A stretch of 3,442 bases of DNA from sequence record PQ561397.1, one strand, 5' to 3'. Origin of the DNA: Escherichia phage Ec1-ASingh. Shown piece by piece: positions 1-3,442 of the stretch. The position numbers were made by a program, and so were the translations under genes. Numbering within the stretch: the stretch's first letter is position 1; every line of letters starts with the position of its first letter. The notes beneath the pieces were generated by a model. The model did no database searches. It saw only the letters and a list, made by a program, of their open reading frames with translations, and had not been told where the DNA came from.

Positions 1-1425
1 GAAGTCTATGAAGCTGCACATACCCGCCTGACTACCGGCGGTAAATCTACAGTTCTCGATAGACACACCGTTAATGTGGGTGGTGGCTGTTGAATCCGGA
101 CCCGCGGCTAAAATTACTGCTTGCCCGGAAATATCACCAATTACCCCTGACACAACAGCATTGTACAGGTATGTACCCGCTCCCGCTGATTCTGCCCCAT
201 GCAGAGCCACATAACAGCCGCGTGTGTATCCGGAGATAATTGAATCTCTGTACCAGGTATCATGTTGGTGTAGCTCCACTGAACACGCTATAACTTGCGC
301 CCTTGAACTCACCGCACGGAATATGCAGTTATCTACACCACTGAAAGGACAGTTAACATATACGGTACTGTGGTCCGCGTTGTTAGCACTCTGTATCAAA
401 TTAATAAACTTACAGTTAGATACCTTACAATTAGACCCATACCCATTCCAGCCAAGGGTAACACCCCAAGTAACATCACCGTTCTGGAAAGTAATACCGG
501 TTACTGAGCAGTTGTAGCTGCGACCAAAAGCGATACCGTTGCGTAACTGTGATGTCGCCCCAAAGTCATAACCACCAAAGTCTATCGTACCGTTGCCGTG
601 AATATGGCAATTATCGAGATTACCGGAGCTTGCAGGGTCACCATTATCAAAGCCTACAAACACCTGAAATGACGAGGAGGCCAAAGCAGGCCCTACTTTA
701 ACAGTACCGTCTAGCTTAATACTTACATTGCTTTTCAATTGTATCAGGCCGCTGTGACCCGATACAGGTCCGGTGCTAATGCTATTCAGATACCATGTAC
801 CTTCCGGTATATGTAGTGTGCCGCCGCCGTTTGTGTTCAGGTAGTCTATAGCTGCTTGCAGATACTGACGGCTGTCAACGCTAACCCCAGGCTGAATCAC
901 ATCCCCGGATGAGTCACAATGAAAATCCCACAGGCTGACCGTATCATCTAATTTATCAGCAACCGTTCTTTTTGTGGTGCTTAGGCTGCCGTCGTACGAG
1001 TACCCAATCAGAGAAGCCCCGCTAAATTCGGACAAGTCGATTCGTAACGCAGAGCCGTCTATAAGTTTCCATCCTGTTGTCGGGGATGAGGATGCTGGAA
1101 CAATCTTAGGATACGCACCAGTCCAGGAGTAGTACTGACCATCGCCACCCGGCAACGGCCAGAGTACTATCTTGTCCTCGTCCCCGGATGCAAGAGTACC
1201 TCCAGAATCGAAATTAAAATCAGCCACGGCAGAACCAATGCTTTTAAGAACCGCAGGGAGCGTCTTTTGCACCTGTCCGGTTACCGCATTGGTCGCGTAA
1301 TCAATATCCGCACCCCCAGCAACACCGCCGGATTTACCAGTGATAACCTCGGCTTCGAAAATCTGGTGTTTTTTGGCGGTTTGTAAATCCGCCAGGCTTA
1401 AAACGTCACCGCATCCGCTTGACAT
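1..1425 (-). CDS. Tailspike / receptor-binding protein, 3'-partial (475 codons in window, C-terminus beyond position 1): N-terminal virion-attachment module plus right-handed parallel beta-helix (pectate-lyase-3-like fold), predicted capsule or O-antigen depolymerase
   Basis: ATG at 1423-1425 (minus) preceded by a Shine-Dalgarno sequence. I checked all 475 plus-strand triplets in this frame (positions 1-3, 4-6, ...) and none is tta, cta or tca, so there is no minus-strand stop down to position 1. Hand translation: MSSGCGDVLSLADLQTAKKHQIFEAEVITGKSGGVAGGADIDYATNAVTGQVQKTLPAVLKSIGS...DFHCDSSGDVIQPGVSVDSRQYLQAAIDYLNTNGGGTLHIPEGTWYLNS...NCHIHGNGTIDF...YNCSVTGITFQNG...SNCKVSNCKFINL...VNCPFSGVDNCIF...IENCRFTAG. 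The D-x-SGD...AIDY...GGGTLHIPEGTWYL entry motif and periodic Asn-Cys rungs are typical of beta-helix glycanases and phage tailspikes. Absent from the ORF track only because it runs off the window without a stop. Confidence 0.85.
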   Translation of the reverse strand, partial: MSSGCGDVLSLADLQTAKKHQIFEAEVITGKSGGVAGGADIDYATNAVTGQVQKTLPAVLKSIGSAVADFNFDSGGTLASGDEDKIVLWPLPGGDGQYYSWTGAYPKIVPASSSPTTGWKLIDGSALRIDLSEFSGASLIGYSYDGSLSTTKRTVADKLDDTVSLWDFHCDSSGDVIQPGVSVDSRQYLQAAIDYLNTNGGGTLHIPEGTWYLNSISTGPVSGHSGLIQLKSNVSIKLDGTVKVGPALASSSFQVFVGFDNGDPASSGNLDNCHIHGNGTIDFGGYDFGATSQLRNGIAFGRSYNCSVTGITFQNGDVTWGVTLGWNGYGSNCKVSNCKFINLIQSANNADHSTVYVNCPFSGVDNCIFRAVSSRAQVIACSVELHQHDTWYRDSIISGYTRGCYVALHGAESAGAGTYLYNAVVSGVIGDISGQAVILAAGPDSTATTHINGVSIENCRFTAGSQAGMCSFIDF

Positions 1426-1430
1426 ATAGA

Positions 1431-1437
1431 GTCCTCT
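1431..1437 (-). promoter_or_regulatory. Shine-Dalgarno sequence (AGAGGA within AAAGAGGA) for the downstream tailspike gene; 6-nt spacer (CUCUAU) to the AUG
   Basis: Minus-strand mRNA reads ...AAU UAA AGAGGA CUCUAU AUG UCA AGC...; plus strand tcctct at 1432-1437 is the reverse complement of AGAGGA. It sits directly after the upstream stop codon at canonical spacing from the ATG (revcomp of cat at 1423-1425). Confidence 0.6.
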
Positions 1438-3442
1438 TTAATTAAAACCATTGCTGAATCCGTCGGAGAAACCGCTGCCGTATGGCGCGACGCCGTCGTA
1501 TTTATAGAATCCGTCGTCATAGTTGTAGCCCGTAATCTTGACCGTGCGGTCATCGCCAGGGTCGATTGAAGAAACAACTATCTTCTGAGCATTATGCCTT
1601 GCTTCGTTGCCGAATGAAAACTCAGTTTTTAGTGCGCTATTCCCCGTGTAGATTGCTTCCTCTGGCGCAGAGAGCATAATCACCTCGCGGTCGTGGCTTC
1701 CTTTGATAACAGAGATGCTTTGCACCGAGCCATCGCGCTTCTTGAGGATGATGGAGTGATCGTCGCCTGGGGTAAACGAAACAGGCTGAGACAGCGTAAG
1801 TGTAAGCCCGTTAACGGCAACAACATAGCCATCCTGCGGCGCGATACGCGAGCCTTTAACGACACTGATTACGCCACCAGGGGTAGCGAGTGCTCCCTCT
1901 TCGGTAGCTTCGAACTCTACGACAACTTTACTTAACGCGTTGCGTTGGTAGCGACGCCACGCCAGCCAGTACGCTTGCTGGTAGTTGCGCACGCCTTTCG
2001 ATTCGTATTCCTCGGTGTTTGCTCCGAGTTCTTCCGGGATATAAATTGTTTCCTGTACGTTAGTATCCGGGTCGATGTACGAGAACGACAGGCTATCGTA
2101 AGTTGTAGAATCGTTGAACGTGCGGGTCCATTTCTCCGTACCGGTAGTTTTGCTGCGGTGGGTGAACACCATTTCAGGCCCAGCAACCGGACGGTCGAAT
2201 CGCAGCATAATATCCGCACCTTTACGGTACGCAGTACAGAACACGGCTTCCGCTATGGCCTGAACAATGTCCTGCATGGTTGTGTCGTAGTCGTCGAACG
2301 TATAGCAGAACTGACCCGCTAATTCACTTCCGAAATAGGACTCAATCTCTTCCTGCACCGCAAGTAACTTGTCCATGTTTGCCGTCGTCAGCTCCAGATT
2401 ACCCACCGCGGGGTCGCGCGCCAGTCGGATTAGCGACTGCACCGCCTGCGTGTTCGGGGTCATTACAGTATCGAATACCCCATTTCCGAGGTATTTGTAA
2501 CACATCTCAGTCGCAATCATGCGCAGTTCAGGGTTGTCAATACTGGCGGCCCGCGGTGTCTGTTTACGGGCGCAATGTACTGTTGTCCGGTTGCCGTAGT
2601 GCGGGGTTGTGTCCAGAGACTGCCCGTACAGGTTGATGAATGTTATCTCATCGCTTACGGTACCGTCGTAGTCCTTATCAAAATTCGTTATACGACGCAT
2701 ACGGGCGCGGAAACGCGATGCGGTAGGCAATTGCCCGTAGATAGACGTGCCAACGTAATCCGTGCTATTACCGGTAACGGTGCCTTGTACGGTGTAGATA
2801 TCACCAATCGGGTTACGCTGAGAATCGATCATCTGGTACTGGAGTTCTACGGTTACATTGGCTCGGCTATAACCGCCGTCGTATTTGTAGAGGCCGTTCT
2901 GCCCGGCAACGTTAGCAAGCACCCGGTCAACTTCTCCGCGCACCATGTAATACCAGTCGGTCAGGGATACGTCGTAGGTGTCTCTCGGACCAATGAAAGT
3001 ATCAGAACGCTCTGTTAAGGTATACGTCTGCCCACTGGTTAACGCGTCCCAATTAGAAGCACCATTCACCGCCAGTCTTACTTCGAAGTCATCGACATAT
3101 AAAACCTCAAACGAGCCGTTAAGGTTAGTGACGCCTGCAACGTCAAAGTTGCTCAGCACCGCGACATCACCGACGCTAAGAAACTCAGAAAAAGCGGAGT
3201 CACCCGACGGGTCATAGATGTAGCCGGTGTTTGAAATACGTTTCGCGGTGCCATCGGCGCTTGGGTTAGCCCCGATGTCGTTTGGCGCTTTCAGTACAAT
3301 ACCGTCAACGTCGTCGTTGGAGTATGTCACATAGAGTTTCTGGTCAATGACGTCCCCGATTTGTAGCTGCGGAGATGTGGTGTTGTTCGGGGAGGTATAT
3401 GGCGCATACACGGCAACAGAGGAGCCTGTGATGTCACTTATC
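1438..3442 (-). CDS. Tail-tip / central hub protein, lambda gpJ-like (host specificity protein J family, hub domains only); 5'-partial, true start lies beyond the window end
   Basis: Uninterrupted minus-strand reading frame from the window edge (3442) to the TAA at 1438-1440 (revcomp of tta). The track's 657-aa ORF starts at a GTG (revcomp of 3409-3411) with no Shine-Dalgarno upstream, and the frame stays open for 10 more codons to the edge (...ISDITGSSVAV-YAPYT...). Motifs I recall from lambda J hub domains: RARMRRIT (about 2689-2712; lambda NIRMRRMT), FCTAYRKGADIMLRFDRP (2188-2241; lambda FCSAMRCMPVWNGQTLTFVQDRP), GYVVAVNGLTLTL (lambda GGRVLAVNSQTRTLTLD), DPGDDRTVKITGYNY (lambda ENDDGTYAITAV). 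The protein ends soon after this region with a Gly/aromatic-rich tail instead of lambda's FN3 repeats and receptor-binding domain. Confidence 0.85.
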   Translation of the reverse strand, partial: ISDITGSSVAVYAPYTSPNNTTSPQLQIGDVIDQKLYVTYSNDDVDGIVLKAPNDIGANPSADGTAKRISNTGYIYDPSGDSAFSEFLSVGDVAVLSNFDVAGVTNLNGSFEVLYVDDFEVRLAVNGASNWDALTSGQTYTLTERSDTFIGPRDTYDVSLTDWYYMVRGEVDRVLANVAGQNGLYKYDGGYSRANVTVELQYQMIDSQRNPIGDIYTVQGTVTGNSTDYVGTSIYGQLPTASRFRARMRRITNFDKDYDGTVSDEITFINLYGQSLDTTPHYGNRTTVHCARKQTPRAASIDNPELRMIATEMCYKYLGNGVFDTVMTPNTQAVQSLIRLARDPAVGNLELTTANMDKLLAVQEEIESYFGSELAGQFCYTFDDYDTTMQDIVQAIAEAVFCTAYRKGADIMLRFDRPVAGPEMVFTHRSKTTGTEKWTRTFNDSTTYDSLSFSYIDPDTNVQETIYIPEELGANTEEYESKGVRNYQQAYWLAWRRYQRNALSKVVVEFEATEEGALATPGGVISVVKGSRIAPQDGYVVAVNGLTLTLSQPVSFTPGDDHSIILKKRDGSVQSISVIKGSHDREVIMLSAPEEAIYTGNSALKTEFSFGNEARHNAQKIVVSSIDPGDDRTVKITGYNYDDGFYKYDGVAPYGSGFSDGFSNGFN

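Follow-up and report, generated by a model that had tools for sequence, protein, structure and literature searches.

The open reading frame on the minus strand of the window (the whole 3,442-nucleotide stretch of DNA analysed here) encodes the C-terminal part of the tail hub protein of a Kagunavirus siphophage (Guernseyvirinae). It is adjoined by the gene for an HK620-type tailspike that would recognise the host and whose conserved N-terminal anchor would dock on the distal tail protein, a reading to which a probability of about 0.8 is given as a whole. The hub is of the gpJ/TipJ type and is a distant homologue of lambda gpJ. The combination of a hub that has no central fibre with a separate tailspike is real, ordinary and already known: a J-like hub with an adjoining tailspike was described in Kagunavirus in 2025. 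An earlier note on this DNA had set the arrangement apart from that of lambda. It does differ from lambda, but an arrangement so common and previously described is no unusual feature.

In DNA sequence the window shares 93.5% identity with the Escherichia coli phages K1ind2 and K1ind3 (Kagunavirus). Translation gives a hub frame without interruption from 1441 to 3442 and a TAA stop at 1438-1440; the frame is open at the window edge, where the first 10 codons contain no stop. The part inside the window represents the C-terminal 667 residues of a protein of 824-851 residues and, because the frame runs off the window, approximately 157-184 N-terminal residues are missing. An 824-residue protein (P0001) is 100% identical to the window's part of the hub, a protein identical to the hub is encoded on Logan contig L003, and the homologue in K1ind2 (gp29, a tail protein) has 851 residues. 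The genes that precede the hub are outside the window, and the place of the hub in the tail tip module is taken from the genomes of relatives. The gene order in K1ind2 is tape measure protein (TMP), 466-, 171- and 121-residue proteins, 851-residue tail protein and tailspike, and in K1ind2, Logan contig L003, 9NA and Sf11 the hub gene sits in a tail tip module after the genes for the tape measure and the distal tail protein. A search of Rfam returned no match, promoter-like and terminator-like sites occur at the frequency of shuffled sequence, and the plus-strand reading frames within the hub gene are short and overlapping, with no coding evidence found for them. The features of the window are listed in Table 1.

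Table 1. Features of the hub and tailspike genes in the window
Feature	Position	Strand	Remarks
Tailspike, partial CDS	1..1425	-	First 475 aa of ~721; runs off the window
HK620-type beta-helix receptor-binding/enzymatic domain	1..1035	-	Tailspike aa 131-475; continues outside the window
Second N-terminal tailspike domain	1036..1245	-	aa 61-130; homologous to N-domains of Sf11 gp13 and 9NA tailspike
Conserved N-terminal tailspike anchor	1246..1425	-	aa 1-60, MSSGCGDVLSLADLQTAKKHQIFEAEVITGK...
Shine-Dalgarno-like AGAGGA	1432..1437	-	6 nt upstream of the tailspike ATG; read from sequence
Baseplate hub protein 2 (gpJ/TipJ-related), partial CDS	1438..3442	-	Residues 158-824 of the 824-aa form; N-terminus cut
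C-terminal 20-residue tail DGVAPYGSGFSDGFSNGFN	1441..1500	-	Two overlapping [FY][SD]xG[FY] units
TipJ-related hub core	1501..2934	-	P0001 327-804; corresponds to about lambda J 104-594
FNIII-A-like Ig domain	2680..2892	-	Window aa 184-254; in the most variable part of the hub
Beta-rich peripheral region	2935..3442	-	P0001 158-326; N-terminal of the J-alignable core

The likeness to the hub region of lambda J, which the earlier note had drawn by eye, is real. The NCBIfam model NF040662 (attach_TipJ_rel, cut-off 140 bits) scores 384.5 bits on P0001 residues 327-804, with positions 4-477 of its 477 aligned, and the match lies entirely within the window; lambda J is matched by the same model at residues 145-590. 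BLASTP of the hub against lambda J gives an E value of 2e-7, and hhalign aligns P0001 323-801 with lambda J 104-594 (probability 97.4%, E 1.2e-11). When the AF2 model of the hub monomer (pLDDT 87.3) is searched with Foldseek, the matches include lambda gpJ (8xcg_J, E 8e-30, TMt 0.66), Sf11 gp14 (9occ_E, E 4.9e-52), T1 (9l9p_S, E 6e-24) and T5 pb3 (E 2e-9). Sf11 gp14 is also retrieved by a sequence search of the PDB (9occ_E, E 1e-26), and a profile match to the same chain covers hub residues 62-822 (E 2e-72).

The hub core contains HDII-insertion/FNIII-A, HDII, HDIII and HDIV with a beta-sandwich insert (names after PMC10721106 and PMC11101478). In domain annotation, which the earlier note had put forward as a check, Pfam PF24801 (FNIII-A_GpJ) matches below threshold (E 0.05 for the window protein and E 0.005 for K1ind2 gp29). 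The beta-rich region at P0001 158-326 is shared with Sf11 gp14, but nothing in the aligned part of lambda J corresponds to it; in the AF2 model its strands run across residues 165-309 with pLDDT >90. The N-terminal part of the hub, as modelled for full-length relatives, consists of a small domain, a disordered hydrophobic linker and beta domains. A fusion of lambda gpI to the hub N-terminus is an unproven lead (hhalign E only 0.042, probability 1.3%), and a PDB profile search with the hub found no gpI chain. HEAT/alphaRep matches at hub residues 28-79, outside the window, were discarded as composition-driven repeat matches.

The region homologous to lambda J stops at J 594 and the hub ends 23 residues past the position aligned to it (hhalign). 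Both hhalign and NF040662 thus put the end of the protein at about J 617 and not near J 700, where the earlier note had placed it. A hub that ends there is without FNIII-1/2, the helical shaft, the beta-prism fibre and the receptor-binding domain of J. The absence of a lambda-type fibre and receptor-binding C-terminus, also proposed in that note, is upheld: the protein ends about 20 residues after the last hub domain, and NF049904 (lambda_TipJ), which scores 2290 bits with lambda J, finds no match in the hub. The hub is compact only in missing the C-terminal half of J, since its alignment with J, which begins at J residue 104, comes after approximately 320 N-terminal residues. The last residues form the short Gly/aromatic tail seen previously (...YDGVAPYGSGFSDGFSNGFN), which is disordered in the AF2 monomer model (pLDDT <50 at 814-824).

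The tailspike gene does follow the hub gene directly, as first noted, with 12 nt between the hub stop and the tailspike ATG at 1423-1425. Its product is 97% identical to K1ind2 gp30 and matches phrog_20900 (tail spike protein). Residues 131-468 match the HK620 tailspike (2vji_A) with an E value of 1e-141 (phmmer). In this alignment HK620 Asp339 and Glu372, the catalytic pair of the HK620 tailspike (an endo-N-acetylglucosaminidase), are paired with Asp351 and Glu384 of the window tailspike; the PDB variant 4xqf carries Gln at the position of this Glu. As the catalytic Asp and Glu are kept, the tailspike is predicted to be an O-antigen endoglycosidase. The C-terminal third of the tailspike is beyond the window but is present in K1ind2 gp30, a protein with Pfam Phage_spike_2 and a sub-threshold match to HK620_9_C.

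The N-terminal part of the tailspike is related to those of Sf11 and 9NA. BLASTP aligns it with Sf11 gp13 residues 51-156 (34% identity, E 1e-8), and hhalign aligns residues 40-134 with gp13 32-133 (E 2.6e-11) and leaves residues 1-39 unaligned to gp13 but aligned to 9NA. The anchor matches the N-terminus of the 9NA tailspike with an E value of 4.2e-10; the Pfam Tail_spike_N match is below threshold. Among the Guernseyvirinae loci with a readable downstream gene, the anchor is nearly invariant in front of genes encoding 476-1207 residues, and DNA similarity to phages with other spikes stops at tailspike residues 44-58. This comparison of loci shows that different spike bodies are exchangeable behind a conserved 60-residue anchor. 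The window itself combines a hub like that of fPoEco01 and fFiEco02 with a K1ind-type (HK620-like) spike body.

Kagunavirus phages are O-antigen dependent, with the tailspike as their only receptor-binding protein (PMC11990801). This phenotype supports the proposal of the earlier note that receptor recognition is delegated to the tailspike, and host recognition would fall to the HK620-type tailspike, whose gene begins 12 nt after that of the hub.

The most probable docking site of the tailspike anchor is the long C-terminal helix of the distal tail protein, not the hub, and a tail would carry six spikes as in Shigella phage Sf11. This docking is drawn from structural and sequence homology; the gene for the distal tail protein lies outside the window. 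The Sf11 tail is the only solved tail homologous to that of Kagunavirus; searches of the PDB found no Kagunavirus structure. In the Sf11 cryo-EM structure (PDB 9OCC), six tailspike trimers are attached by their N-terminal helices to an adaptor helix of gp17, the distal tail protein, and none to the hub gp14; gp13 residues 4-59 make the contact (PMC12724387). A model of the Kagunavirus distal tail protein (moderate confidence, pLDDT 72.5) has a long C-terminal helix at residues 124-156, and its best match is Sf11 gp17 (9occ_D/C, E 1.2e-7, TM 0.70, 169 columns, whole length), in which the adaptor helix comprises residues ~126-152. By sequence the two proteins do not match significantly (E 0.04-0.09 with BLASTP and two hhalign profiles), and the link between them is one of fold comparison only. 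In Ur-lambda, side fibres dock on gpV/gpM (PMC12617516). Counting against this site, anchor residues 1-39 do not align with the helices by which Sf11 gp13 contacts gp17. Co-variation across 80 loci does not separate the candidate partners, since the Spearman correlations with the anchor all fall between 0.57 and 0.73 (distal tail protein, small hub protein, 121-residue protein, hub halves and tape measure end).

The earlier note, like the BASEL authors, had instead suggested the hub as the docking platform. In this reading the hub trimer would bind either three tailspike trimers or a single central one, perhaps by way of the aromatic-glycine tail. Such docking is unlikely. The tailspike gene does immediately follow that of the hub in all loci with a readable downstream gene, the C-terminal tail is conserved yet disordered in the monomer as expected of an interaction motif, and negative-stain images were read as three spikes, which agrees better with docking on the hub than with six spikes placed on a hexamer. 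However, the Sf11 spikes sit on gp17, the Kagunavirus distal tail protein is predicted to have the fold of gp17 including the terminal helix, and the N-terminal module of the tailspike is homologous to that of Sf11. The tail motif is absent from Sf11 gp14 and from the 9NA hub, although the 9NA tailspike has the same type of anchor, whereas Vibrio phage K389 has a hub with a similar tail and no adjoining tailspike gene. Finally, co-variation with the anchor is no stronger for the hub than for the distal tail protein. The latter is the preferred site, and the role of docking platform assigned to the hub is unsupported.

The aromatic-glycine tail is specific to a clade and is kept across the Guernseyvirinae loci and in some more distant relatives. 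It is quite unlikely that the tail has a function in Kagunavirus and Jerseyvirus that Sf11 does not have, either holding the tailspike anchors on the hub trimer or coupling O-antigen cleavage to opening of the cone.

The hub might also contact a receptor itself, with the FNIII-A-like Ig domain and the insertion domains binding a surface glycan or secondary receptor after removal of the O-antigen by the spikes. The hub varies most in the block P0001 181-420 (mean identity of 34-62% as against 70-87% in the core), and some genomes look exchanged there (59% identity in the N-terminal part of the hub and 92% in the C-terminal part). Additionally, Ig-like domains of phage tails have been proposed to bind carbohydrates weakly (PMC10721106). 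However, variability by itself is no evidence of binding, and a family search matched no lectin-type family to region 181-420. Kagunavirus isolates fail completely when O-antigen is absent, and their narrow host ranges fit a single receptor-binding protein (PMC11990801). A direct role of the hub in receptor binding is therefore improbable.

The compact end of the hub is genuine and is the majority form among relatives. Nearly all of 80 Guernseyvirinae loci share the identical stop and tail. Among the 150 best cluster representatives, 104 end within 20 residues of the C-terminus of the hub and 40 have C-terminal extensions of 60-640 residues; a lectin-like Laminin_G_3 domain is present in three of seven extended representatives examined. 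The aromatic-glycine tail occurs in 15-17 of the 104 compact representatives and in none of the 40 extended ones. It is extremely improbable that the hub only seems compact, being a J that is truncated or frameshifted or having a receptor-binding domain in another part that the window edge conceals, even though the hub N-terminus is indeed cut by the window and extended relatives exist, some with Laminin_G_3. The end is widely shared, a ribosome-binding site and the tailspike start come after the hub stop, and Sf11 gp14 (828 residues, same architecture) was detected in virions by mass spectrometry, with a model that reaches residue 827 (PMC12724387). The earlier note had allowed for a receptor-binding domain elsewhere in the full-length protein; full-length relatives account for the missing N-terminal part, in which none is recognisable by family search or in the model.

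The discovery value of the locus is small, as the hub is 99-100% identical to deposited Kagunavirus tail proteins, its family has already been named by NCBI, the arrangement of the genes was published together with its meaning in 2025, and a homologous tail tip, that of Sf11, has already been solved (PDB 9OCC). Its use lies in the correction of annotation and in the engineering of siphophages that depend on O-antigen or capsule. What these siphophages can exchange as a unit is the spike body carried behind the 60-residue anchor, and that anchor would likely have the distal tail protein, not the J-like hub, as its partner.

Among known systems, lambda gpJ (1132 residues) has homologous hub domains (J 104-594) and a corresponding place after the tape measure and M/L/K-type genes. 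The window hub has nothing of gpJ beyond ~J 617 (FNIII-1/2, alpha-helical shaft at 809-861, beta-prism fibre and LamB-binding domain), and unlike lambda, Kagunavirus has no separate gpI gene annotated. [quoted passage not shown] The comparison with pb3 that the earlier note proposed reveals a distantly related hub fold, but with a TM score of only 0.25 pb3 is not a close relative of the window hub and was rejected as a close model for it.

Salmonella phage 9NA has a compact hub of 840 residues (gp54) that is 29% identical over 98% of the query. It shares the tail tip gene module of Kagunavirus, a tailspike (gp55) with a homologous N-terminus including the anchor, and a homologous distal tail protein (E 3e-7); it differs in having its tailspike gene on the other strand and a hub that lacks the aromatic-glycine tail. 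The hub of Sf11 (Cedarrivervirus), gp14 or baseplate hub protein 2 (9OCC chain E), is present in three copies per virion and is modelled in the tail tip (PMC12724387). It is similar to the window hub in length (828 versus 824-851 residues) and is homologous over almost its whole length (Foldseek TM 0.63/0.70), although identity is only about 20%. Sf11 and Kagunavirus both lack a central fibre and share the gene order TMP, distal tail protein, small hub protein, hub and tailspike. They differ in the hub tail, which Sf11 gp14 does not have, in the spike body (Sf6/P22-like in Sf11, HK620-like in the window), and in the first ~39 anchor residues and the distal tail protein sequence, which cannot be aligned. 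The closest counterparts are the Kagunavirus tail proteins with their adjoining tailspikes (K1ind2 gp29, fPoEco01 and fFiEco02), from which the window shows no difference of substance; the fPoEco01/fFiEco02-type proteins, at 99-100% amino acid identity, are the same protein as the window hub.

The noteworthy coding sequence in the window lies on the minus strand throughout (see table). The earlier note's reading frame for the hub is genuine but incomplete, a fragment cut off at the N-terminus: the frame is open to the window edge, and an 824-aa database protein (P0001) is 100% identical to the window's hub part. Because full-length relatives have 824 or 851 aa, the first 157-184 hub residues, depending on the start chosen, lie outside the window. 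The tailspike opens 12 bases past the hub end, with AGAGGA between the hub stop and the tailspike ATG. Plus-strand ORFs are short and overlapping, and Rfam, promoter and terminator scans of the window gave nothing above background. The Escherichia coli phages K1ind2 and K1ind3 (Kagunavirus, Guernseyvirinae) have 93.5% DNA identity over the whole window, and the hub part alone has 95-96% DNA identity to fFiEco02-type phages. In K1ind2 the counterparts are gp29, a 'tail protein' of 851 aa (hub), and gp30, a 'tail spike protein' of 721 aa (spike); upstream of gp29 lie genes for the tape measure and for proteins of 466 aa, 171 aa ('minor tail protein') and 121 aa.

Table. Coordinates of features in the window and in related loci (L001, K1ind2; L003, Logan contig with identical hub; L004, Sf11 genome; L086, Acinetobacter phage vB_AbaS_Ftm)
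Feature	Position	Strand	Description
Hub frame	3442 (window edge) to TAA 1438-1440	minus	Open frame, 667 residues, end ...GFYKYDGVAPYGSGFSDGFSNGFN
Tailspike frame	ATG 1423-1425, runs off at position 1	minus	475 residues
Hub C-terminal tail	window 1441-1500		Two overlapping [FY][SD]xG[FY] units, conserved in Guernseyvirinae
Most variable hub part	window about 2182-2901		P0001 181-420 (76 relatives)
Possible mosaic	window 1246-1425 + 1438-3442		fPoEco01/fFiEco02-type hub, K1ind-type spike body
Hub N-terminus	L001:8450-8890		P0001 1-120, outside window
Distal tail protein, short	L003:8564-9064		166 aa
Distal tail protein, long	L001:6178-7578		466 aa, K1ind2 gp26
Sf11 ORF	L004:12934-13431 (MF158038)	minus	165 aa, unannotated, between gp16 and gp14 (lambda gene K position)
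vB_AbaS_Ftm hub relative	L086:5614-9060		1148 aa

The proposed likeness of the hub to lambda J was confirmed by several methods. Pairwise BLASTP aligned K1ind2 gp29 330-762 to J 86-533 (22% identity, E 2e-7), and P0001 327-804 scored 384.5 bits against NCBIfam NF040662 ('host specificity factor TipJ family'; cut-off 140 bits), the same model that J residues 145-590 match. Pfam Phage-tail_3 and FNIII-A_GpJ were both found below threshold only, and the lambda_TipJ model did not match the hub. A profile built from 73 relatives aligned P0001 323-801 with J 104-594 (Prob 97.4%, E 1.2e-11). The AlphaFold2 model of the hub (pLDDT 87.3, pTM 0.73) had Sf11 gp14 (9occ_E) as its best structural match (E 4.9e-52), followed by lambda gpJ chains (E 8e-30, TMt 0.66-0.68), then the T1 tip protein and, far lower, T5 pb3, chi, JBD30 and gene transfer agent hubs. 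The hub C-terminus lies 23 residues beyond the position aligned with J 594, so the early stop relative to J stands, although it falls at about J 617 and not near 700 as the earlier note had it. In lambda J, a beta-sandwich insertion of HDIV spans residues 483-569, and HDIV resumes with its next strand at 570-578; past HDIV follow FNIII-1, FNIII-2, a helical shaft (809-861), a beta-prism fibre and the LamB-binding domain (PMC10721106, PMC11101478). All five are missing from the hub, as the claim of an absent fibre and receptor-binding end implied. The hub belongs to the TipJ-related family of hubs rather than to the lambda-type central fibre proteins.

The compact hub end is genuine and not unusual. 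The same C-terminal tail ends the hub in nearly all of 80 related loci from viral contigs, and wherever a downstream gene was readable it started 8-16 nt past the hub stop. From 1287 related clusters, the 150 best representatives include 104 whose C-terminus falls within 20 residues of the one in the window; another 40 are extended by 60-640 residues, and three of seven extended relatives examined have a concanavalin-like Laminin_G_3 domain at the end. By tblastn, 980 phage records contain the compact type, among them those of Jerseyvirus, 9NA, and phages of Vibrio and Acinetobacter. Given both extended and compact relatives, the family is modular, with a hub core to which a distal module is fused in some members and not in others. 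In vB_AbaS_Ftm the hub relative is extended at its C-terminus by about 300 aa, and the next genes encode a small membrane protein and then the endolysin, without a separate spike gene; this layout is the complement of that in the window.

The spike is 97% identical to K1ind2 gp30 over the window. Its residues 131-468 resemble the HK620 tailspike (E 1e-141), and it retains Asp351 and Glu384, aligned with the catalytic Asp and Glu of the HK620 tailspike. Among Guernseyvirinae loci with the downstream gene read, the first ~60 spike residues (the anchor) are near-invariant and total length is 476-1207 aa. DNA similarity to phages with other spikes ends at spike residue 44-58. These sequences show the usual design, in which an exchangeable body sits behind a conserved anchor. 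No other tail-tip element is as well conserved as the anchor (median identity 82%; the hub has 60% and the distal tail protein 69%). The window looks mosaic, as its hub has 99-100% protein identity to fPoEco01/fFiEco02-type phages, which have other spikes; the break in DNA similarity falls just inside the conserved anchor. A variant anchor, MSSGCGDVISLESMQIARKHQIFEIEV... (tailspike residues 1-60), is common to two loci, L003 and L025 (95% identity), whose hubs are 68% and distal tail proteins 65% identical; anchors apparently move with spikes among quite different tail tips.

The earlier note cast the hub as the docking platform of the spike, but the evidence points to the distal tail protein. 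In Shigella phage Sf11, the one solved homologous tail, there are six spike trimers, and gp13 residues 4-59 (N-terminal helices) bundle with the adaptor helix Glu129-Glu152 of gp17, the distal tail protein, and not with hub gp14 (PMC12724387). The Guernseyvirinae spike N-module is homologous to gp13 (window aa 40-134 to gp13 32-133, E 2.6e-11) and, from residue 4 on, to the 9NA spike (E 4.2e-10). In the contig carrying an identical hub, the Kagunavirus distal tail protein is 166 aa long; it has no significant sequence similarity to gp17. The AlphaFold model of this protein (pLDDT 72.5) includes a C-terminal helix of 33 residues (124-156), and its best PDB matches are the two gp17 chains (169 columns, E 1.2e-7, TM 0.70); lambda gpM comes after them, matching in the core only. 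Side fibres of Ur-lambda likewise dock at the gpV/gpM level (PMC12617516). Docking on the hub itself is unlikely in Kagunavirus, both from the Sf11 arrangement and because the hub C-terminal tail does not track the anchor: 9NA has the same anchor type and a hub without the aromatic-glycine tail, and Vibrio phage K389 has a similar hub tail and no adjacent spike gene. Taken together, the Sf11, N-module, fold, Ur-lambda and hub tail evidence suggests that the Kagunavirus spike docks on the distal tail protein (probability roughly 0.6-0.65).

The distal tail protein occurs in Kagunavirus in two lengths. The longer form has an added C-terminal domain that matches the GTA head-spike-fibre model (NF048003, E 3e-25) and is very similar to the C-terminal appendage of Sf11 gp17 (E 5e-93); the N-terminal parts of these two proteins are not alignable. 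Like lambda gpK, the unannotated Sf11 ORF has a Pfam NlpC/P60 match that passes the threshold (E 1e-8); MF158038 annotates only a 58-aa gp15 there, on the opposite strand. The Kagunavirus 121-aa protein at the same position has no Pfam match.

The aromatic-glycine hub tail is present in 15-17 of the 104 compact representatives and in none of the 40 extended ones. A different conserved tail, NDKDFINGIxDExG, ends many other relatives and runs on into the extension in long forms. Mean identity per 20-residue block is 34-62% in the most variable hub part, versus 70-87% in the core. In loci L019-L022, L035 and L077 the N-terminal part of the hub is 59% and the C-terminal part 92% identical, which looks like recombination within the hub gene. 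The hub N-terminus consists of a small domain and a disordered hydrophobic stretch, GALGAVSKVFGFILKPIAKLFGL (pLDDT <50), after which comes SPNNxLxxRxNxxRPxxRxxDIxG, the family's most conserved motif. Lambda gpI has a similar layout, which suggests that gpI and gpJ are fused here; the annotation has no separate I-like gene, and the match to gpI is weak (hhalign, E 0.042).

The window encodes a fibre-less J-type hub and, next to it, a spike that has a conserved anchor and is predicted to be active. Relatives depend completely on O-antigen, and the spike is their only receptor-binding protein (PMC11990801). By cutting a path through the O-antigen, the spikes would carry the cone to the outer membrane, where the hub trimer may open and the tape measure protein exit and form a channel, as in lambda and T5. 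A lambda-type signal passed from a receptor-binding domain through the fibre cannot be the trigger, since both parts are absent.

The hub and the Kagunavirus 'tail protein' are one and the same protein. Its arrangement with the spike was published in 2025, the TipJ-related hub family has been named by NCBI, and the homologous Sf11 structure was released in 2025. Compared with lambda J, the hub has about 320 residues ahead of the part aligned from J 104 onward and is more than a shortened J. Its closest solved relative is Sf11 gp14, with which it has its architecture in common over the full length.
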